A stretch of 32,000 nucleotides of DNA from Dickeya dadantii NCPPB 898 (GCF_000406145.1 NZ_CM001976.1:2233543-2265542), one strand, 5' to 3'. Counted from the first letter of the stretch, positions 14,590 to 29,452 are shown. The notes: generated by a model not told the origin, from the letters alone. A program made the numbers and translations.

Positions 14590-14742
14590 GCGGTTTTGCC
14601 CCGTCGGCAGGCGGGGCGAAGCCGTTAGCGTTTTTTAGCTGACGGTGCGGTCGGACGTCCGTGGGTAACCGCGGATCCCTGTGGCAGGGGCGCGCCAGAT
14701 CATTAATCGATGCCCGTTGGGCATGACTGGAGATTACCCTCG

Positions 14743-15384
14743 ATGAAAAACTGGAAAACCAGTGCGGAACAGATTCTGACAGCCGGTCCGGTTGTTCCTG
14801 TGATTGTGATTAACAAACTGGAACACGCGGTACCGATGGCGAAAGCCCTGGTAGCGGGTGGCGTGCGTGTGCTGGAGCTGACGCTGCGTACCGAGTGTGC
14901 GGTAGAGGCGATTCGCCTGATCGCGCAGGAAGTGCCGGATGCTATCGTCGGCGCCGGTACGGTCACCAACCCGCAACAGCTGGCGGAAGTGACCGCAGCC
15001 GGTGCGCAGTTTGCCATCAGCCCCGGCCTGACCGAGCCGCTGCTGAAAGCCGCAACGGAAGGCACTATTCCATTGATCCCAGGGATCAGCACCGTATCCG
15101 AACTGATGCTGGGGATGGATTACGGTTTGCGCGAGTTTAAATTTTTCCCGGCGGAAGCTAACGGCGGGGTAAAAGCGCTGCAGGCGATTGCCGGTCCGTT
15201 CGGCAAGATTCGTTTCTGCCCGACCGGTGGGATCTCACTGAAGAATTACCGCGGCTACCTGGCGCTGAAGAGCGTGCTGTGCGTCGGTGGCTCCTGGCTG
15301 GTGCCGGCCGATGCGCTGGAAAGCGGCGATTACGATCGCATCACGGCGTTGGCGCGTGAAGCTGTTGCCGGCGCGACAGCCTGA
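14743..15384 (+). CDS. eda: KDPG / KHG aldolase Eda (KdgA)
   Basis: [22 protein letters not shown]... from ATG 14743 (GGAG upstream) gives 213 aa as in E. coli Eda. The Schiff-base Lys context EFKFFPAE is present. Confidence 0.96.
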
Positions 15385-20420: not shown

Positions 20421-21299
20421 ATGACGCTGGAATGGCTTTACACGTTATTGCGCCTCGGACATTTCTCCAGCCTTATGTTGCTGGTCGGTTCAGCTTGTTA
20501 CAGCACGTTGCTGGCTCCCCGAGCGTACCGGGTGCGACTAGCGTCGCAACTGCATGGTCTGATGGCAATCAGCTGTGTGGCGGCGTTATTGACCGCCGTA
20601 GCCATACTGGCGGCGCAAACCGGATTGATGAGTGGCGACTGGCGTAATATCGGTGATGCCGGCATCTGGCGCGCCGTGCTGGGCACTCGCTTCGGGGAAA
20701 TGTGGCTTTGGCAACCCGTACTGGCGCTGATGGCCTGCGCGGTGTTTTTCTGGCGTGGCCATTACCGGCAAGCAGGCGTGCTGATGCTGGGCATAGTGCA
20801 ACTATGCGGCATGGGATGGGTGGGGCACGCGGCGATGCTGGAAGGATGGCCTGGCGTACGGCATGGCATCAATCAGGTCGTGCATTTGCTGTCGGTGACG
20901 TTTTGGGTCGGAGGGCTGCCTCCACTGCTGTTTGTGTTGCAGGATGCGCGTCTGACGCAGACGCGAACGGACGCTATCCTGACGATGATGCGTTTTTCCC
21001 GTTATGGTCACCTGGCCGTTGCATTGGCGATCCTGACCGGGCTGGTGAATACTAGGCTGATTCTCGGCTGGCCGCTTGCGGGTACAGGGCTTTATGGCGT
21101 TCTGCTGGCAGTGAAAGTTCTGCTGGTGGCCGTGATGGCGCTGCTGGCGTTATTCAATCGGTATTGGGTGGTGCCGCGTTTTCAGCGGGCAAATGGCGCT
21201 GCGTATGGTTATTTTCTGCGACTCACCGCAGTGGAACTGGTGTTAGCCGTTCTGATCATCGCGCTGGTCAGCTTTTTTGCCACGCTGTCGCCGGTTTGA
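20421..21299 (+). CDS. yebZ: Inner-membrane copper resistance protein CopD/YebZ
   Basis: 292-aa polytopic membrane protein starting 3 nt after copC. Size and hydrophobic pattern fit the CopD family, and the pairing with copC is conserved. Confidence 0.9.
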   Translation: MTLEWLYTLLRLGHFSSLMLLVGSACYSTLLAPRAYRVRLASQLHGLMAISCVAALLTAVAILAAQTGLMSGDWRNIGDAGIWRAVLGTRFGEMWLWQPVLALMACAVFFWRGHYRQAGVLMLGIVQLCGMGWVGHAAMLEGWPGVRHGINQVVHLLSVTFWVGGLPPLLFVLQDARLTQTRTDAILTMMRFSRYGHLAVALAILTGLVNTRLILGWPLAGTGLYGVLLAVKVLLVAVMALLALFNRYWVVPRFQRANGAAYGYFLRLTAVELVLAVLIIALVSFFATLSPV

Positions 21300-21434
21300 A
21301 TTGTGCGAGAGCGTGAGCGGGAAATATCGTCTGTATTCGTGTTGCACGAGTGGGATAAATGCACCAGGTATATTCTCTAATAACAAACATTGGTAATGAA
21401 AATAATTATCAAATCTTAATTTCGAACATTTTCC

Positions 21435-21453
21435 CATAATGAAAATCATTATC
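21435..21453. promoter_or_regulatory. Fur box upstream of ftnA
   Basis: CATAATGAAAATCATTATC matches the 19-bp Fur consensus GATAATGATAATCATTATC at 17 of 19 positions. It lies ~135 bp upstream of ftnA inside a 280-bp AT-rich region. Confidence 0.65.
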
Positions 21454-21586
21454 ATGACTAAATGATAATACTTTGAATTTATAACAAAATTATTCATTTA
21501 ATGGTTAATGGAATGTTTTAAATTTTATTGTTTGCAGGCATAATGCGAATCCATCAGTCACCTGCCAGTAAAAATAAGGAATGGTC

Positions 21587-22096
21587 ATGTTAAAAAAAGA
21601 AATGATTCAGAAGCTGAATGAGCAGCTTAATCTTGAATTTTACTCCGCCAATTTATACCTGCAGATGAGCGCCTGGTGCGGCGACAAAGGTTTTGAAGGG
21701 GCGTCGACTTTCCTGAAATCGCATTCTCGTGAAGAAATGGAGCACATGCAGCGCCTGTTCGATTATCTGGACGATACCGGCAGCATGCCTGTGCTGGGCG
21801 CAATCGCCGCGCCGCCGGTTGATTTCAGCTCGTTGCAGGATGTGTTCAAGCTGACCTATGAACATGAGCAATTGATCACCAGTAAAATCAATGAGCTGGC
21901 TCATGCAGCCATGACGCTGCAGGATTACTCTACCTTCAACTTCCTGCAATGGTACGTAGCGGAACAGCATGAAGAAGAAAAACTGTTCAAGTCTATTCTC
22001 GACAAGATGGGCATGGTGAATGCTCAGGAAGGCGGACTGTTCTTTATTGATCAGGATCTGAAGAAAATGGCGGCATCCGCCACACCGTCTGCCTGA
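21587..22096 (+). CDS. ftnA: Non-haem ferritin FtnA
   Basis: [31 protein letters not shown]... from ATG 21587 aligns with E. coli FtnA. The ferroxidase ligands are present (E..EEMEH..., [11 protein letters not shown]). Confidence 0.93.
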
Positions 22097-22104
22097 TCAT
22101 TGCT

Positions 22105-22145
22105 GGGCGGCTGGATTATCTGGCTGCCCGGTTTATTGTTATTTT
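22105..22145 (+). terminator. Possible ftnA terminator
   Basis: GGGCGGC (22105-22111) pairs with GCTGCCC (22123-22129) with one G-U pair, followed by a T-rich tract. Confidence 0.45.
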
Positions 22146-22239
22146 CCGCCTGTTTCTCTCGAATATAGATATTATCGATATCGCACCGCATACGGTATAT
22201 TCCCGGTAATTTTCACCGTCATTCTATGTGCCCACAATT

Positions 22240-22315
22240 TCAACGCCATTTCATAATAATACCGTCATTTTATAACAATACCGTCATTTTATAACAACAC
22301 GGTCATTTTATAAAA
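22240..22315. repeat. 19-bp direct-repeat array (core CCGTCATTTTATAACA)
   Basis: Two identical copies ATACCGTCATTTTATAACA sit at 22259-22277 and 22278-22296. A 16/19 copy follows at 22297-22315 and a 13/19 copy precedes at 22240-22258. A further degenerate copy lies at 22213-22231. Confidence 0.85.
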
Positions 22316-22647
22316 ATACGCCAATACTTGTTCTGCCCCCAGGTATGAGTTTCTGTGTATAAACCTTGCCCTCCGTCAGCTTGTAATCATTTTTTCTTCA
22401 CCTGAATATTACTCAGGCATGGTGAGGTAGCCGTTAACCATATGCTCATGCGCCATCGCTGCGGACATTGTGGTTTGGTGAAAGCGGAACGAGCCGGATA
22501 CACGCGATTATTTCGACAGCCGGCGGAATAATCACAGTGTTTCCCGTTGGTCCAGTCTGGGAGTCGCCGATTAGCAATCGGTACGACAAGCCGATATCCG
22601 ACAGGATTAAACGCATTCACCGTATTTCCGCATGAGAGAGCAAACCG

Positions 22648-23388
22648 ATGGCATGGAAAAAAATGACGCGCTATTTATTGTCATTAATGCTGATGATGGC
22701 GTGTTTCCCGGTAATGGCAGGCCAGTCGTTATGCCCTGGTAAATTCCTCAATGACGAAACACCCAATATTCATTATGACGAAGAGATTTGTTTCACTGAA
22801 TTTGTCGTGCTTTATAGTTATGCGAATAAAGCGCCATTAATTTCCGCGCAGCGTTTAACCGCCGAACGGGTCAGAGCCGCGGAGACTATTTCCAGGCGTG
22901 ACTCATTCCATGTTGAGCCATTGATCCCTCGGGCTGTGCGTTCGGCGACTGACGATTACGAGTCCTCAGGGTACGATCAGGGGCATATGACGCCGGCGGG
23001 AGATATGCCAAATTCTCTGGCGCAGCATGAGTCTTTTTCCATGTCGAATATGACGCCGCAGTTGCCGAAACTGAACCGGATATCCTGGCGTAAAATCGAA
23101 GCATCGGTTCGCAAACTGGCGTTGCAGGATGGCGAAATATGGGTGGTGACGGGCGCCGTATTCGGCAGCAAGAGAATCGGCAACGGGGTATCGGTACCGA
23201 CCCTGATTTATAAAGCCATTATTAGCCAGTCAGTCCAACAGGTTTTTGTGGGCGATAACACCACCGGTGTTGTCACCAGCCTGTCGATCAGTGACTTTTC
23301 CACGCGGTATTCCATAGACCCATTTCCAACCCGGCGAATAAATGAAACAGCCCTGAATGGCGGTGAGGACTCCGACAAGCATCGCTAA
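22648..23388 (+). CDS. Secreted DNA/RNA non-specific endonuclease (Serratia NucA / His-Me finger family)
   Basis: 246-aa ORF with a signal peptide MAWKKMTRYLLSLMLMMACFPVMA|GQ. It has the catalytic block GYDQGHMTPAGD (family DRGH motif) and FSMSNMTPQLPKLNRISW (family SNxxPQ...N..W). Confidence 0.85.
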   Translation: MAWKKMTRYLLSLMLMMACFPVMAGQSLCPGKFLNDETPNIHYDEEICFTEFVVLYSYANKAPLISAQRLTAERVRAAETISRRDSFHVEPLIPRAVRSATDDYESSGYDQGHMTPAGDMPNSLAQHESFSMSNMTPQLPKLNRISWRKIEASVRKLALQDGEIWVVTGAVFGSKRIGNGVSVPTLIYKAIISQSVQQVFVGDNTTGVVTSLSISDFSTRYSIDPFPTRRINETALNGGEDSDKHR

Positions 23389-23527
23389 TTTATACGGAGG
23401 TGATGGTGAAACCGATCGGTAACAGCGATCAATTCTAAAAAATTGATCTGTAAAAACGTCTATAAAATAACCGCTTCTGATGCCATGATGTCAACGCTAA
23501 ACGCTAATTTGAACGCCAGGGAAACGG

Positions 23528-23756: not shown

Positions 23757-24899
23757 TCACGAAGACGTTGCGGTATCCGGAATTCCACGCACCCTGATTG
23801 GCTCCTTAACGGCGTTTGCGGCGAGGAGGTGTTGAAGGGCGGAGATGGCGGTGTCGGTGAGTTCATGGCCCTTGGTGAGAACCATCAAATCGTTGGTGGT
23901 GCGGATGTCTTCATCCACCACCCAGCCGGGTTTTAATTCGCAAATGCGCACCGTGCGGGTGCCAGCCACGTTGGAGCGGAAATCAACCAACGCTTTGATG
24001 ATGTATTCAGGGATAGCAGGCCGCGCCACGCGCAGGATTTCCCTGGGATGTTCCAGACTTAACCCCCGGGCCGCATGGCGTTCCAGTTCCAGAGCGGCGC
24101 GCAAGAGGTGAGCGCCGCGGATAACTTCTGTTGGGGCGTTGGACGGGGCAGCCCCGGCCTGATGGCGGATGATCTCGGCTACCCGTTCGAGGCGGGGGAT
24201 ATTCTCCACCAGGCGACCGGCGACCTCCGGGTGCTCCTGAAGGAGTTTTTTCTCGTCCTCCGAGAGGTCGCGCTGGGCTGCATCGGCCTGGACGATATCG
24301 GCGGGAATACCCACACAGCCGATTTGGCTCAATGAGGCGGCGATGGTGTATATCCATCCATCGGGCCACTCCAGCTTGGTCAGCGCGTGGCGAACACAAG
24401 ACTGGGCGAAGGCCGCCCGCTGAAAAGCCCATGGAGCAACCATGGCGAGTACTTCAGTCAGTGTCTTGACCGAGGCGGTGAGGGTGGTTTCCAGTAATTC
24501 CTTTTCCGCACAGATGAGACGGTACTGACCAACGGCGTCGTTAAGCGCCGCAACCAGTTCCTCTTTGGGGCACGGTTTGCAGAGGTAGCGAAAGATGGCC
24601 CCTTTGTTGATGGCTGCGATGGAGGATTCCACATCGGCCTGCCCGGTGAGGAGGATACGCACGCTGCCGGGGGAGATTTCTCGCGCTTTGGCGAGGAAGG
24701 TGGCGCCGTCCATGCCAGGCATGCGCATGTCGGACATGATCACGGCAAAACGCTTGCCCCAGCGAACGGCGTCCAGGCCGGCTTCACCGCTGTGAGCCAC
24801 CACGACGTCGAATTCGCCAAAGAGGTTTCGTTCCATCGCAGCGAGTACATTGGGTTCGTCGTCTACGCACAATACCCGGGGTAAGGCAGTTTCAGTCAT
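23757..24899 (-). CDS. Response regulator: REC + degenerate HD-GYP-like (RpfG/HnoD-type) domain + C-terminal extension
   Basis: 380-aa ORF. The REC domain has DDEP...VIMSDMRMPGMDG...LCKP. The output region has the HD-GYP scaffold (..AASLSQIGCVGIPADI...LSEDEKKLLQEHPEVAGRLV...IIRHQ..), but SQ replaces HD, RHQ replaces HHE, and there is no GYP. Its ATG overlaps the upstream gene's stop (ATGACTGA). Confidence 0.85.
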   Translation of the reverse strand: MTETALPRVLCVDDEPNVLAAMERNLFGEFDVVVAHSGEAGLDAVRWGKRFAVIMSDMRMPGMDGATFLAKAREISPGSVRILLTGQADVESSIAAINKGAIFRYLCKPCPKEELVAALNDAVGQYRLICAEKELLETTLTASVKTLTEVLAMVAPWAFQRAAFAQSCVRHALTKLEWPDGWIYTIAASLSQIGCVGIPADIVQADAAQRDLSEDEKKLLQEHPEVAGRLVENIPRLERVAEIIRHQAGAAPSNAPTEVIRGAHLLRAALELERHAARGLSLEHPREILRVARPAIPEYIIKALVDFRSNVAGTRTVRICELKPGWVVDEDIRTTNDLMVLTKGHELTDTAISALQHLLAANAVKEPIRVRGIPDTATSS

Positions 24900-25989
24900 C
24901 GAGAGTTTCCTGAGTGTGGGCGAGCATATCCTGCCACTGTGGCAGTTTGTTCAGCACGCCGGTTTGTTCAAGATAGTTCAGGTCCGGGGCGCTGTTATTG
25001 GCCAGAGCGACCGCTACATGCACCGCACCAATCGCACCAAAGGTTTTATCCGCGGAACGGGAGGGATGTGTTTGACAGGCGACAACTTCCACGATGTCCA
25101 TAGGTAAACCCCACAGCGCCAGCAGATACGCGCCTACTGCGGCGTGTATTGGGGTGTTGTCGCGAGTCGTGGTTGCCTCGTTGTCAGACTCCCTCAGCTC
25201 GGGGATAAGCAGCGCAATGTTAGCGAGTAGGGCCGCGGTCGGCTCCAGTCCCTGATGGCCGGAGATGCTGGCGGCCAGGGTTGAGGCGAGCAGCGCGCGT
25301 TGTTGCAGCCGATCCACATAAGGGTCGAGCTTCGCGTCCGCAAAGACCTGAGACGCCAGAACAAGCAGTTGCACCTGATCCAGACCCAGATGGGTGATGG
25401 CGTTTCCGATGTCATTAATGCGACCGCCTCTGGCGAAATAGGCCGAATTAGCAAGCTGCATAATCTTGGCGCTCAGCGCAGGGTCACTGCCCAGCAGTTC
25501 GGCGATGTGTCGGATATCGCTGCCGGGGTTGGCAATGAGACGGCATACTTCGATGAACACTTTGGGGGACGCCGGCAGCCGGCTGGTGCGGCCTACTATC
25601 TCGACCACCGCTGGGTCCTGGAACATGTCGCGCAGGGCCAGAGCGCTTCCTACCATCTCCAGCAGCACCGTGCTGTCACAGGGTTTGGATACAAACCGGT
25701 GGGCGACGTCCACCATACGCACGGTGGCATCGGGTTCAGAATAGCCGGACAGGATGATGCGTATGGTGCCGGGCCAGCGGTCGCGTACTTGAGTAAGTAA
25801 TTCAGCGCCATCCATGAAGGGCATTCGCATGTCGGATACCACCACGTCGGCCGGCTTTTCCTCCAGCATCGCAAGTGCCTCCTGGCCGCTATTGGCGAAG
25901 CGGCATTCCCATTCGGTGTCTTGCATCATGAGGGCCCGCTCAATACCGGAGAGCACCCGACTTTCGTCATCGACGAACATCACTTGCAT
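24892..25989 (-). CDS. Response regulator: REC + HDOD domain
   Basis: The REC domain has FVDDES...VVVSDMRMPFMDG...VSKP. The HDOD features are LPASPKVFIEVCRLIANPGSDIRHIAELLGSDPALSAKIMQLANSAYFARGGRINDIGNAITHLGLDQV and ...HAAVGAYLLALWGLPMDIVEVVACQTHP. ATG 25989 is preferred over the track's TTG 25998. It overlaps the kinase gene by 10 nt. Confidence 0.85.
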   Translation of the reverse strand: MQVMFVDDESRVLSGIERALMMQDTEWECRFANSGQEALAMLEEKPADVVVSDMRMPFMDGAELLTQVRDRWPGTIRIILSGYSEPDATVRMVDVAHRFVSKPCDSTVLLEMVGSALALRDMFQDPAVVEIVGRTSRLPASPKVFIEVCRLIANPGSDIRHIAELLGSDPALSAKIMQLANSAYFARGGRINDIGNAITHLGLDQVQLLVLASQVFADAKLDPYVDRLQQRALLASTLAASISGHQGLEPTAALLANIALLIPELRESDNEATTTRDNTPIHAAVGAYLLALWGLPMDIVEVVACQTHPSRSADKTFGAIGAVHVAVALANNSAPDLNYLEQTGVLNKLPQWQDMLAHTQETLDD

Positions 25990-27095
25990 GCGGGGCAATC
26001 CTCTTTGTGGCAGTGAAGGGGCAGTTGCAGGATGAATGTCGTCCCCACGCCGTCTTCAGACTCGCAACGGATCAGCCCGTCATGTTTGTCCACCACGGTC
26101 GAATAGACAATCGCGAGCCCCTGACCCGTGCCTTTGCCTACTGCCTTGGTCGTGAAGAAGGGATCGAAAATGCGGTCGCGGATCCCCGCAGGAATGCCGC
26201 CTCCGTCGTCTTTGACTCGGATCTCCATATACTCGCCGTCCCGCGCCGCGGATATGATGATGCGCCCTTTCTCCCGGATGCCTTCCTGGATGGTATCAGC
26301 GATGGCATGGGCGGCGTTCACCACCAGATTGATAATGGCCTGGCCGATCATGTCGCGCAGACACGGCAGTTGCGGCAAGTCGTCCTCGAAGCTGGTTTCA
26401 AGTTCCGCTACGTATTTCCATTCGTTGCGGGCGACGGTCACCGTGGTGTTGATGACCTCGCGCACATCCACCAATTCCTTCTCGCTGTGAGAGGGGTGGG
26501 AGAATTCCTTCATGGCGGCCACGATCTTGGCGATATGACCAAGTCCTTCCAGCGATTCGTCTAAGGCGTTTGGGATCTGGCGGCGCAGAAAATCCAGTTT
26601 AGTGCGCTTGAGAACGGCGTCGAACTCCGCCATCACGGGCTCATCAGCCATTTTCCCGCGTGCGGCATCGGCCAACGCCAGCGCGGAGTCCAACAGGCTT
26701 AGCAGGGAAACGGTGGCCGTTTTAACGAAACCCACATTGTCGGAAACGTACTGGGTTGGCGTGTTGATCTCGTGGGCGATACCGGCGGCGAGCTGGCCGA
26801 TGGATTCCATCTTCTGAGCCTGTAGTAACTGAGCCTGGGTGAAGCGCAACTCGGTCAGCGTTTTTTCTAACTCCTGGCGCTCGTTCTCTAACTCCAGGGT
26901 CTTGCGGGCGACCACCTTCTCCAGACCCACGTTTTGCTCCAGGATGGCAAAAGGCGTAGCGTGGCTGTGTCTGGCTTCTTGTGCGATGCGGCGCTTGAGG
27001 ACTTCGATGGTCTTGTCCCGGGCGGTGAGCTTGCGCTGGTATTCGGCGGTGGACAAACCGCTGGCGGACGCTTCGGAAAATGTTCCTTCAGTCAA
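25980..27095 (-). CDS. Soluble histidine kinase (coiled coil + HisKA + HATPase_c) without its own sensor domain
   Basis: It has an H-box [11 protein letters not shown], an N-box [11 protein letters not shown]1 DDGGGIP and G2 GTGQGLAIV. There are no TM segments and no PAS or GAF domain, and the ~100 aa N-terminus is heptad-like. The preferred start is TTG 27095 (GGAGGA 7 nt upstream, TTGACTGA overlap with the FIST stop); the alternative is TTG 27110. Confidence 0.85.
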
Positions 27096-28212
27096 CGTTC
27101 GGTCCTCCAATGGCGATACCTGTGAAAGTTTGGTTCACGTGCAACCCGTTATATTGCTCGCCGTAGGTGGAAAAACCGATTACCCGGTTCTGCGCCATTA
27201 CGCTGCCGATCTGCTGTTCAAGCCCTTCCTGTTCGAACTGGAGTCGGCGCAGGATGCAATCACAGCCGATGATTACCGCCGGTTCAGGGATCGTCTCGCG
27301 GACTTTGTCAAAGGCCTGTCTGAGGGTTTGGACCGGGTCCTCCGCTTTGCCGATGGCGACGATCAGTCCCTCCTCGATGGCGCAGTAGCAAGTGAGAGAA
27401 AGATCGTCGTTCCACTTCTGTATGGAACGGACGTAGGGTTCATCGCCGAAGGAGAGCATCAGCGGATTACGGGAAAATACGGTCGGCGTCAATTCGTTCA
27501 CCGTAAGACCCAGAGCTTCAGCGTAAACCTGAGCGGCAGGTTCGCCGTTTATCTCCAGGATGAGCCGCTTCTCCGGATCGGCCTCGGTGATGACTAGCTC
27601 TATCTCGCTGGGTTCGAAGTGTTGGACCTTAAAGGTGGTGACGGGGGAATGCGTCTCGATAACGGCGAATACGGCGGCGTCGGAAATAAACCGCCCATTT
27701 CCATCATAGACATGCGTCTTTTCGAAACGCAGGTCATCGCCAGCGGAGCCGCCGATTATAGGAACGTTGCCGATCTGCTGGTAGAGGTTCGCTACCAGAC
27801 GTTCTTCGACCATAGAGAGGCCGTCGACCAGCAGCAGACCAAAGCGATGCAGGTTCGGTCTGGCCTCGCTATCGCGGCGAATGGCTTCGGCGATATCGGC
27901 CACGACCGCGGTATAGTTAACCAAAGGTTGAATCATAAAGGAGTGGATGCGAAAGCCGCCGCCTAATCCTAGACCCAACAGTCCGGAGTGCTGGAAGCCT
28001 TCGGTGCCAATCTGACCAGAGGACGTACAACCTATACAGGGACAGGAGAAGGTGTTCTTCAACTCCCGGCCCAGAACCTCCAGGTCGTAGTCTGGGGAGC
28101 AGAAGAAAATGACGGTATCGATGCCTTCATGACCAATCTGGTTGGCAAATTCGGCGACAGCCTGGACCGGATCCGGCGATTCGCTACTGGCATATTTGGG
28201 TTGGACATTCAT
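27088..28212 (-). CDS. FIST_N/FIST_C domain sensor protein (NosP-like)
   Basis: 374-aa cytoplasmic protein with ATG 28212 and GGGAGA upstream. Its FIST hallmarks are ...VIFFCSPDYD..., GCTSSGQIG, LLLVDGLS...IIGGSAGD, ...VIIGCDCILRRL... and GFSTYGEQ. Confidence 0.85.
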   Translation of the reverse strand: MNVQPKYASSESPDPVQAVAEFANQIGHEGIDTVIFFCSPDYDLEVLGRELKNTFSCPCIGCTSSGQIGTEGFQHSGLLGLGLGGGFRIHSFMIQPLVNYTAVVADIAEAIRRDSEARPNLHRFGLLLVDGLSMVEERLVANLYQQIGNVPIIGGSAGDDLRFEKTHVYDGNGRFISDAAVFAVIETHSPVTTFKVQHFEPSEIELVITEADPEKRLILEINGEPAAQVYAEALGLTVNELTPTVFSRNPLMLSFGDEPYVRSIQKWNDDLSLTCYCAIEEGLIVAIGKAEDPVQTLRQAFDKVRETIPEPAVIIGCDCILRRLQFEQEGLEQQIGSVMAQNRVIGFSTYGEQYNGLHVNQTFTGIAIGGPNVD

Positions 28213-28863
28213 GGCGAGTTCTCCCGATGCTAAGCAGAAACCTTCGCCTGCGCTCCTGCATTCTTCAGTTACCCTCTGTCAGTATCCTTCTGTCGGTTAT
28301 CCCTCTCCAGAGAGGTTAGGTGGCGGTGGTGCAAATAGCAAATATGCAGAATTTTATCTTATCTATAAGTACCCACAGGGCTGCCAGCTGTCGTCATCCT
28401 GCGGATGTACGCTGGCGGTAAAAAAGCTCAGCGCAGCCAGCCAGGAGAGAGCCCCCCATGCGACCAGACGGGGCACCCACGCGAATAGTCAGGCGCTCCG
28501 GCCCGTCGCTAATCCCACGCATTTATCCACCGTCACGAAAATAGCGAATGGTAATGTTCTCTAAACAGTACTCAACCGGTACACGTGATCAACGCTGAAC
28601 ACGCGGTGGCTACTGAGAGAGGCTGACGACGTTTATCCCGTCAGGTCGGCGAGCGCTGCGTTATCTGCATTGCGGGCACTGATTGAGGTGCTGATTGGGG
28701 ATAGGTTATTCGCGTCATTTGGCTTGAATTTTTTTGTTACATCCTTGTTATTGAAAAGCCATTAGCATCAAGGAATTGCAGGTTATATTTACATCGGGTA
28801 CGGAATGTCGGGTCAATTTCGGGTATTTTGGGGCTGAACAATATTTTTTAAAATCAATGATAT

Positions 28864-28969
28864 AAAAAAAGACCGAACACGATTCCTGTGCCCGGTCTAG
28901 GGAAATGGCTCTTGGGAGAGAGCCGTGCGCTAAAAGTTGGCATTTGTTGCAGGCTGCATCGCAGCCCGC
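28864..28969 (-). ncRNA. sdsR: RpoS-dependent small RNA SdsR (RyeB)
   Basis: The minus strand reads GCGGGCUGCGAUGCAGCCUGCAACAAAUGCCAACUUUUAGCGCACGGCUCUCUCCCAAGAGCCAUUUCCCUAGACCGGGCACAGGAAUCGUGUUCGGUCUUUUUUU. As I recall the E. coli/Salmonella SdsR sequence, the core AUGCCAACUUUUAGCGCACGGCUCUCUCCCAAGAGCCAUUUCCCU is identical to it. It has a terminator hairpin plus U7 and lies downstream of yebY, as in E. coli. Confidence 0.85.
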
Positions 28970-28972
28970 ACT

Positions 28973-28983
28973 TTAAGCGTAGA
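28973..28983 (-). promoter_or_regulatory. Sigma-S type extended -10 element of sdsR
   Basis: The minus strand reads TCTACGCTTAA, against the sigma-S consensus TCTATACTTAA with the -13 C. It is positioned so that transcription would start near G 28969. Confidence 0.55.
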
Positions 28984-29113
28984 CGACTCACTTTCGTTTT
29001 CCAGTCTGGCCCGGTTTTTGACAGCCAATACTGAAACAATCTGTACACTTTGTGACAACCAGCGCAAACCCGCGTATTCGTGATCCACTCTCTCTTCCGG
29101 AGTGCTATATGCG

Positions 29114-29452
29114 CTACTGACAGAGGTCTTTGGCCCGGTCGATAAAGGGTTGCAGACTCATTTTTTGTCCCGGATTCTGCGGGTCATCCAGAAGAAGGGT
29201 CTCCAGCGGACGAGCGTTCACCTTGCCGGTGTTGACCTGCTCACGCGCCACGTCATTGAGCGGGTATTGCACCAGCGTACTGGGATTGATCACGTACATT
29301 GTATGGCCAGGCCGACAGATCAACTGAACTTCTTCGCGGTTGAATGCCCAGCGCGGGCCATATTCCAGCTTGCTCAGGTTCGCCAGTTGTGGCGCGGCCA
29401 ACGCCTGAACCGACAGCACAGCGACAATAAGCGACAGCACTACTTTTTTCAT
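29114..29452 (-). CDS. yebY: Periplasmic protein YebY (DUF2511)
   Basis: 112-aa ORF with a signal peptide [19 protein letters not shown]|[37 protein letters not shown]...[15 protein letters not shown] is colinear with E. coli YebY. Confidence 0.9.

Follow-up and report, generated by a model that had tools for sequence, protein, structure and literature searches.

In a stretch of 32,000 nucleotides (nt) from Dickeya dadantii NCPPB 898 (NZ_CM001976.1:2233543-2265542; the whole stretch is hereafter the window), four minus-strand open reading frames (ORFs), g1 to g4, run from position 28212 to 23757 with every junction overlapping. A preliminary description had proposed this layout, and our reading of the ORFs and junctions agrees with it in every particular, down to the coordinates. 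The first gene, g1 (27088..28212, 374 amino acids), encodes a single-module FIST_N and FIST_C protein resembling the accessory sensor NosP (Pfam, NCBIfam); g2 (25980..27095, 371 amino acids) encodes a soluble, sensor-less histidine kinase of NosK/NahK-like type; g3 (24892..25989, 365 amino acids) encodes a response regulator that joins a receiver domain (REC) to an HDOD domain; and g4 (23757..24899, 380 amino acids) encodes a distantly NosR- and HnoD-like regulator in which REC is followed by a pseudo-HD-GYP domain and a further C-terminal domain. We consider it fairly probable that the four genes constitute a self-contained, mobile phosphorelay in which the NosP-like sensor would act on g2, g2 on both receivers, and the receivers, through protein contacts, on unlinked targets.

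The most likely start of g2 is the TTG at 27095, which stands 7 nt downstream of a GGAGGA Shine-Dalgarno sequence (27102..27107, minus strand, read from the sequence) within the 3' end of g1; a mechanical ORF call begins at 27110. With the TTG start, g1 and g2 overlap by 8 nt (TTGACTGA, 27088..27095). For g3 we prefer the ATG at 25989 to the longer ORF start at 25998 because it yields 365 amino acids, the length of all orthologues, and with this start g2 and g3 share 10 nt (ATGCAAGTGA, 25980..25989). The overlap of g3 and g4 is again 8 nt (ATGACTGA, 24892..24899), and a GGGAGA lies 7 nt ahead of the g1 ATG at 28212. The products of g1, g3 and g4 share 98-99% identity with proteins of Dickeya dadantii (g1 99% with protein P0241).

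Pfam searches supported all four domain calls of the preliminary description. They returned FIST (8.6e-46) and FIST_C (3.7e-23) in g1, Response_reg (1.5e-20) and HDOD (5.1e-29; 101.6 bits to PF08668, whose gathering score is 22.9) in g3, and Response_reg (7.6e-17) with a partial HD_5 match (1.1e-16, profile positions 2-105 of 170) in g4; in g2 the expected HATPase_c was found (5.3e-22) and the expected HisKA stayed below threshold (13.4 bits against a cutoff of 26.9). The kinase carries the H-box HEINTP at His108, and its N, G1, F and G2 boxes are all present; from these motifs it appears to be catalytically complete, soluble and devoid of a sensor domain. Residues 1-107 contain no recognisable domain (32% are charged, with weak heptad periodicity), and in none of the four proteins does any 19-residue window reach the hydrophobicity required to cross a membrane. 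With neither a domain nor a span ahead of His108 and a FIST gene overlapping its own, g2 bears out the suggestion that the kinase is sensor-less and that the upstream FIST protein is its likely input. Judged by motifs and domains, g2 combines a competent dimerization/phosphotransfer and catalytic core (DHp+CA), an H-E-x-x-N/T motif and no sensory domain, as NosK/NahK-type kinases do, and its H-E-x-x-T motif predicts a bifunctional enzyme with kinase and phosphatase activities.

The g1 protein matches the NosP equivalog model NF041558 (NCBIfam) over its full length, residues 8-369 aligning with positions 1-368 of 368, at 400.8 bits; since the curated cutoff is 450 bits, we term it NosP-like and do not treat it as a certified equivalog. 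Its genomic setting corresponds to the definition of NosP, a stand-alone FIST gene overlapping by 8 nt a kinase that lacks its own sensor, and this arrangement is kept in seven other genomes. Residues C57, C62, C277, C319, H198 and H358 are invariant in g1 and 20 relatives, and C38 and C317 are nearly so in its FIST family. The ligand is probably haem-bound nitric oxide (NO) or haem itself; the literature debates NO and/or haem as the ligand of FIST, and the sensing of NO or other gases by g1 is an extrapolation. The earlier designation of the operon as a gas- or redox-type branch was thus an overstatement, given the score of g1 and the debate over the FIST ligand.

The flavohaemoglobin HmpX of Dickeya is needed against plant NO, which marks NO as a relevant host signal, and all stand-alone FIST proteins beside sensor-less kinases that have been studied biochemically responded to NO. 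Together with the full-length NosP match, these observations argue against the alternative that the same pathway senses a signal other than NO, be it labile haem, redox state or a metal through the invariant cysteines, or a small metabolite, with NO irrelevant in Dickeya. That alternative draws on the score below the equivalog cutoff, on the four invariant cysteines and two invariant histidines of the g1 family, on Vibrio cholerae CdpA, which is listed in the literature as haem-inhibited through FIST, and on the effect of NO on NosP/NosK, which is opposite in sign between species (PMC12570481). We regard it as possible, though rather unlikely, and retain the NosP-type reading of g1.

A kinase and receiver pair shared across phyla

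The preliminary description had overlooked that the kinase and the two receivers form a conserved unit of their own. We define a triad as three adjacent, co-oriented genes encoding a HEINTP kinase, a REC-HDOD protein and a REC-pseudo-HD-GYP protein, and we followed it through the 80 loci listed as matches in a scan of genome contigs with a REC-HDOD alignment, which are mostly distant relatives and serve here as a cross-phylum sample. These loci span Acidobacteriota, Planctomycetota, Chloroflexota, Myxococcota, Desulfobacterota, Gemmatimonadota, Nitrospirota, Bacteroidota, Actinomycetota, Hydrogenedentota, Lentisphaerota, Kiritimatiellota and several proteobacterial classes, more than 12 phyla in all. 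A kinase lies directly upstream of the REC-HDOD gene in 61 of the 80, and 56 of these 61 kinases have the exact HEINTP H-box, at positions ranging from residue 128 to 2068, which points to a conserved transmitter core carrying interchangeable sensor regions. Of the 80 loci, 59 include a g4-type gene, which stands directly downstream of REC-HDOD on the same strand in 48 of the 79 that could be evaluated; strict adjacency of all three genes is seen in 39 of 80, and the genes of the Dickeya window form a full triad under this definition. A FIST gene, in contrast, accompanies only 4 of the 80 loci. The conserved unit is therefore kinase, REC-HDOD and REC-pseudo-HD-GYP, and not FIST and kinase.

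On this evidence the kinase core and the two receivers appear to be an ancient three-gene module that occurs in many phyla with differing kinase inputs. It is in the FIST-linked lineage (Enterobacterales, Rhodocyclales, Xanthomonadales) that the kinase has no sensor of its own, and in this Gamma- and Betaproteobacterial lineage the kinase may have lost its sensor and recruited FIST. Other combinations occur: Mesoterricola has a FIST-kinase pair with only a REC-HD_5 protein of the same pseudo type, in the order regulator, FIST, kinase (R-P-K), and a Polyangiaceae genome has a FIST-kinase pair with a convergent REC-HDOD gene plus REC-EAL.

The receivers themselves are intact, as the preliminary description had noted of their phospho-acceptor sites and lysine. 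The receiver of g3 has the motif VSDMRMPFMDG and the phospho-site residues D7, D8, D53, S81 and K102, and that of g4 has MSDMRMPGMDG with D13, D14, D57, T85 and K108; the acidic pair, the acceptor Asp, the Ser/Thr and the Lys of KPC are invariant or nearly so in the alignments of both families. The two receivers share 35% identity (E 6e-22), which, with their intact phospho-sites, fits a single cognate kinase.

In about 12 of 44 triad loci (L005, L017, L024, L028, L029, L030, L035 and L036 among them) a third gene of about 190 amino acids, absent from the Dickeya cassette, lies directly downstream of the g4-type gene. It encodes a REC of the same subfamily (DERMPGM...KPC) with an acidic or coiled tail that has no known domain, and may be a phosphate sink or an adaptor. 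Apart from this variable gene, no conserved extra output gene, and nothing enzymatic, was found downstream of the triad in the 44 loci.

Degenerate output domains

The HDOD domain of g3 has lost the HD dyad, with LLANIAL in place of the family's LLHD[IV]GK, and has CQTHP where the family has HH.P. Among triad HDOD domains at large the dyad is mostly kept (H in 72 of 83, D in 67 of 83), as is HH.P. Phenotypes already exist for an orthologue of g3, a point that the preliminary description had also overlooked: the orthologues are W909_14520 of Dickeya zeae and Dda3937_04330, which the D. zeae study equates with one another (PMC5113947). Deletion of W909_14520 in D. zeae EC1, with primers that map to 26140-26159 (in g2) and 24946-24965 (at the 3' end of g3) of the window, gave much less biofilm in LB medium and more swarming, and lowered protease by about 15% and cellulase by about 11% (PMC5113947). 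The same paper counts W909_14520 as the sole HD-GYP phosphodiesterase of D. zeae; the gene was named HD-GYP although it encodes a REC-HDOD protein because the authors treated HDOD as HD-GYP, and the adjacent g4 orthologue, degenerate and truly HD-GYP-like, went unrecognised, as the FIST and kinase neighbours went undiscussed (PMC5113947). The annotation in the literature can thus be corrected: the D. zeae 'HD-GYP' gene is an HDOD gene, and its real HD-GYP-like neighbour was passed over. A literature search for the locus tags Dda3937_04328-04332 found nothing.

These phenotypes, which follow deletion of the g3 orthologue alone, bear on the possibility that one receiver alone is a true output, whose kinetics the other shapes as a competitor or phosphate sink, as in branched chemotaxis-like pathways. 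One kinase here feeds two paralogous REC domains, g2 has the H-E-x-x-T phosphatase motif, Burkholderia NosK has been argued to work mainly as a phosphatase (PMC12570481), about a dozen triad loci add a sink-like gene with REC and a short tail, and FIST-kinase pairs with one receiver type exist (REC-HD_5 in Mesoterricola, REC-HDOD in the Polyangiaceae genome). Across phyla, however, strong purifying selection acts on both output domains, with many invariant positions outside REC, which a pure sink would not need, and this, with the D. zeae phenotypes, leads us to think a sink unlikely and to continue with both receivers as outputs.

The core of g4 (about residues 146-285; 24045..24464, minus strand), delimited by a family profile against HD-GYP structures and by column statistics on 60 family members, departs further from its enzymatic relatives. 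HD is replaced by SQ, the following Lys by Cys and HHE by HQA, GYP is lost and RPYR is deleted, so that g4 fails the residue test for an RpfG-type HD-GYP phosphodiesterase (SQ, HQA, no GYP). In the family, S and Q each occupy the HD columns in 48 of 60 members; the Lys of HDIGK is never Lys and is Cys in 36 of 60; HH reads xQ; no member has the Tyr of GYP; and the RPYR segment is a gap in 58-60 of 60. The Dickeya clade also lacks the FDGSG.P block, reading HQAGAAPSN. The loss of metal and catalytic residues claimed earlier is thus confirmed for g4 and extends to the HD dyad of the HDOD domain, and the earlier likening of g4 to HnoD is upheld by the motifs (SE and QLE in HnoD, SQ and HQA in g4). 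Both output domains of the Dickeya-clade cassette appear, from their residues, to be more degenerate than their family norms.

When a profile built from 24 g4-type output regions was searched against the PDB, it matched solved HD-GYP domains, V-cGAP3 (5Z7C, 2.5e-15) and DvhD (9RBZ, 2.5e-12) and further 4R8Z (7.6e-5) and 4MCW (4.3e-4) of PA4781 and PmGH, and HD_5 was found in all 24 members; on the strength of these structural matches the HD-GYP fold assignment is safe. Full-length g4 returned only REC matches in a PDB sequence search and in Foldseek; its AlphaFold2 (AF2) model has a mean predicted local distance difference test score (pLDDT) of 84.6. Against the NosR family NF053512 (NCBIfam) g4 scores 202 bits, far under the curated cutoff of 400, which makes it a homologue and not a member by threshold; its output region alone scores 58.4 bits (E 6e-16) over profile positions 170-414 of 422, an alignment from which we conclude that g4 shares the NosR architecture, C-terminal part included. 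The REC fragment of PDB 3KCN, a structural-genomics entry for an 'adenylate cyclase homolog' of Rhodopirellula baltica, is 43% identical to residues 7-144 of g4 and shares the ELL..T linker motif peculiar to the family; 3KCN is probably the N-terminal half of a misleadingly named g4-family protein.

The match to DvhD raises the alternative that g4 is a phosphorylation-gated cyclic-dinucleotide receptor, an effector of cyclic di-GMP (c-di-GMP) beyond a protein-binding adaptor. DvhD is likewise of the SQ type, with HD replaced by SQ and HH by MN; it does not hydrolyse c-di-GMP and yet binds it with a dissociation constant (Kd) of about 99 nM (PMC13090378), and LSQ[IV]G is common to DvhD and the g4 family. 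However, DvhD keeps the Lys of SQVGK, GYP and M..R.YR, and mutating the M..R.YR segment weakens binding (PMC13090378). In the g4 family the Lys and the GYP Tyr are absent from every member and RPYR is deleted, and the Dickeya clade lacks FDGSG.P as well, so that g4 is unlikely to be an enzyme or a canonical c-di-GMP receptor; the residue columns disfavour a DvhD-like receptor, and we give this alternative little chance.

After the pseudo-HD-GYP core, the last 85 or so residues of every g4-family member form a further domain (in g4 about residues 288-380; 23760..24038, minus strand) with the motif L.PGM/W..(D/E)D....G.LL..G.E.T...EP..V across the family and a closely similar version, L.PGW/M..(D/E)ED....G..(L/V)L..G.E(L/V)T, recorded for the domain in g4. 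In g4 its AF2 model is an alpha/beta domain (pLDDT 83.2) of no known family or fold: no Pfam family matches at E<=10, and no significant fold neighbour was found in the PDB, the best Foldseek E-value being 0.27. A DUF3391-like or PilZ-like identity is unsupported by the Pfam and fold searches. The domain recurs in 1225 representative clusters at 50% identity, nearly always at the C terminus of proteins of 360-405 amino acids. Two metagenomic proteins carry it in several copies, P0377 (966 amino acids) being built of two REC and SQ pseudo-HD-GYP units and, after them, the C-terminal hairpin motif in triplicate, and P0455 (597 amino acids) one g4-type unit with three C-terminal motifs; the motif thus behaves as a repeatable unit. 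P0377, with its two REC and two HD_5 stretches, had been considered as a g3-g4 fusion, which is ruled out, as it is a g4-g4 tandem duplication.

That the HDOD or pseudo-HD-GYP domain of the triad acts on a non-canonical substrate or binds a metal or ligand, making the output enzymatic after all, we consider highly improbable: HD and HH.P are kept in most HDOD domains of the wider triad and the D. vulgaris HDOD regulator DVU0330 is weakly active on bis(p-nitrophenyl) phosphate (bis-pNPP), but the Dickeya clade has LLANIAL and CQTHP instead, GsmR and DVU0330 are inactive on c-di-GMP, and all metal ligands are gone from g4.

Genomic setting of the cassette

At least seven other genomes, drawn from three orders, contain these four genes in identical order (Methyloversatilis, Tahibacter, Kosakonia, Xanthomonas translucens, Nitrogeniibacter, Musicola and Sodalis), a recurrence that makes the arrangement no product of chance. 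Their sites are unrelated: on the rpoD/mug side in Kosakonia, between dnaB and a photolyase gene in X. translucens, between malic enzyme and PLA1 genes in Nitrogeniibacter, next to guaA/guaB in Musicola, and among genes for methyl-accepting chemotaxis proteins (MCP) in Sodalis, where g3 is apparently split. No conserved neighbour flanks the cassette in these five hosts, and no EAL, GGDEF or helix-turn-helix (HTH) protein lies in or near it in any of them. The occurrence of one set of four genes at unrelated sites indicates that the cassette is accessory and horizontally mobile as a unit, with its targets encoded elsewhere, and the claim that it belongs to an enterobacterial core region does not hold. 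In Sodalis sp. C49 (L090, 8209-9307) the REC-HDOD gene is called as two pieces of 62 and 312 amino acids with a weak REC match and is probably a frameshifted pseudogene.

In Dickeya the operon takes the place of pphA beside sdsR, as had been proposed: the gene order is pphA(-), sdsR/ryeA, yebY(-) in Escherichia coli K-12 and operon(-), sdsR/ryeA, yebY(-) in the window. SdsR/RyeA itself (28860-29007, Rfam) adjoins the operon, and a simple scan found a strong SdsR terminator on the minus strand at 28898-28870. A sequence scan shows the region from this terminator to g1, about 650 nt on the minus strand (28213..28863), to be poor in ORFs, a leader or promoter region far longer than the gap of only about 135 nt between sdsR and pphA in K-12; it may contain an extended leader or a regulatory region, or be crossed by read-through from the sigma-S-dependent sdsR promoter. 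A simple consensus scan found no convincing sigma-70-like promoter upstream of g1. In E. coli MFDS1022581 (L084, 4863-5939) a prophage with integrase, excisionase, RecT and RecE adjoins the match to sdsR/yebY and occupies the side of sdsR on which pphA stands in K-12 and the cassette in Dickeya, which suggests an insertion hotspot there.

Elsewhere in the window, the stretch 21000-23500 is low in GC (45-49%, against about 57% for the operon) and includes a ferritin gene (21581-22096); a DNA/RNA non-specific endonuclease with a signal peptide (22648-23388) is convergent with g4. The genes for CopD (20421-21299) and YebY (29114-29452), neighbours in E. coli, lie here about 8 kb apart on opposite strands. 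A KDPG-aldolase RNA motif (Rfam, 92.7 bits) at 14644-14733 on the plus strand stands directly upstream of, and overlaps the start of, the ORF at 14710-15384, presumably eda.

A proposed pathway and its known relatives

From what the sequences show of gene layout, domains and residue states, and of conservation, co-occurrence and mobility, we derive the following pathway. A NosP-type FIST protein in the cytoplasm would serve as a detachable sensor, probably of haem-bound NO or haem, and by binding the sensor-less soluble kinase g2 would set its kinase/phosphatase balance. The kinase would phosphorylate both of the translationally coupled downstream receivers, REC-HDOD (g3) and REC-pseudo-HD-GYP with its C-terminal domain (g4). 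Since neither output is expected to hydrolyse nucleotides and g4 lacks the contacts for c-di-GMP, the output should consist of protein-protein contacts, controlled by phosphorylation, with partners from elsewhere in the genome; the phosphorylated pair would act in this way on unlinked targets that govern the switch between biofilm and motility, the likeliest partners being c-di-GMP-metabolising enzymes or regulators of motility or biofilm.

Several points weigh against this pathway. Both g1 and g4 fall under the curated cutoffs of the NosP and NosR families, and ligation of haem or another cofactor is not assignable from sequence to any residue of g1. The ligand, the contact between FIST and kinase, the transfer of phosphate to g3 and g4 and the kind of target are inferences; no partner gene lies nearby in any host, and the target class is a guess from the analogy with HnoD and NosR and from the mild D. 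zeae phenotypes, which could also stem from polarity on g4. A Rosetta-stone search, in which one two-unit protein was examined, found no natural fusion of g3-type and g4-type proteins, and simple scans identified neither a promoter nor a terminator for the operon.

We put forward more tentatively, and as the less probable case, a wider proposal: that the triad is a previously unrecognised pan-bacterial output module in which the pseudo-enzyme receivers are an obligate pair, a domain without a known fold provides the effector surface, the mechanism lies outside the characterised c-di-GMP and two-component paradigms, and the FIST cassette of Dickeya is one tractable input variant. Among response-regulator outputs without a known mechanism, HDOD and degenerate HD-GYP domains rank with the most frequent. 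The inheritance of the two receivers as a pair, with a dedicated kinase core, and the state of the pseudo-HD-GYP partner, which lacks even the contacts for c-di-GMP but has gained a conserved C-terminal domain of unknown fold, turn this into a defined question: what does the pair bind? As the Dickeya cassette is compact, fully soluble and carried by a genetically tractable host, it is a good place to study the pair. Dickeya meets plant-derived NO during infection, and a dedicated pathway from NO or haem to behaviour could matter for soft-rot virulence.

The core of NosP, NosK and NosR was already known, and what is new here is the kinase and receiver pair as a widespread, essentially unstudied module. 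Studies of NosP signalling cover Pseudomonas, Vibrio, Shewanella, Legionella and Burkholderia, and we found no description of it for Enterobacterales in the literature searched. For g3, the closest counterparts by architecture are GsmR of Xanthomonas campestris and DVU0330 of Desulfovibrio vulgaris, which also join REC to HDOD without hydrolysing c-di-GMP; GsmR has a motility-related phenotype, as the D. zeae orthologue of g3 affects swarming and biofilm, but for neither protein is a pairing with a pseudo-HD-GYP regulator and a HEINTP kinase described. For g4, the best non-enzymatic structural relative is DvhD of D. vulgaris (PDB 9RBZ/9RC0), which shares the replacement of HD by SQ, the absence of a metal site and the HD-GYP fold; unlike g4, it is a membrane dCache-PAS protein and not a response regulator, and it keeps the Lys, GYP and R.YR that the g4 family lacks.

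As in Legionella pneumophila NosP-NahK-NarR and the NosP-NahK systems of Pseudomonas aeruginosa and V. cholerae (VpsS), a FIST accessory sensor would control an adjacent kinase in Dickeya; the Legionella output, in contrast, is an active GGDEF-EAL regulator, whereas the Dickeya kinase is non-hybrid and its two outputs are pseudo-enzymes. The P. aeruginosa and V. cholerae NosP proteins act on hybrid kinases that feed histidine phosphotransfer (Hpt) relays (HptB, LuxU). In the Shewanella oneidensis network of H-NOX, HnoK and HnoB/HnoC/HnoD with NosP/NahK input, one kinase likewise serves several receivers, and HnoD, a REC and degenerate HD-GYP protein (HD to SE, HHE to QLE) that lacks phosphodiesterase activity and inhibits the phosphodiesterase HnoB, resembles g4 by its published motifs. 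That network, however, includes the REC-EAL protein HnoB and the DNA-binding HnoC, for which there is no counterpart here, and REC-HDOD lies outside the Hno set.

The nearest known system is NosR-NosP-NosK of Burkholderia pseudomallei and B. thailandensis (BPSS1648-1646). There the FIST protein NosP binds the soluble sensor-less NosK (H-E-I-N-N) and inhibits or controls its autophosphorylation in an NO-dependent manner, and NosK rapidly phosphorylates NosR, a REC and degenerate HD-GYP protein (HG...GTP) presumed to act on other c-di-GMP enzymes (PMC12570481). Both systems have a stand-alone FIST gene beside a soluble sensor-less kinase with an H-E-I-N-x H-box and an REC and degenerate HD-GYP regulator in the operon, and in both a non-enzymatic output is presumed. 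They differ in gene order (R-P-K there, P-K-X-R here, with X the REC-HDOD gene that Burkholderia lacks), in the HG...GTP of NosR against the SQ and lost GYP of g4, and in host, Dickeya belonging to the Enterobacterales. The earlier remark that no characterised example of exactly this four-gene composition was known therefore fails for the combination of sensor, kinase and REC-degenerate-HD-GYP protein, which the Burkholderia nosRPK operon represents (PMC12570481), and stands for the added REC-HDOD gene: as FIST, kinase and REC-pseudo-HD-GYP all have characterised counterparts, it is this gene alone that makes the four-gene composition new.

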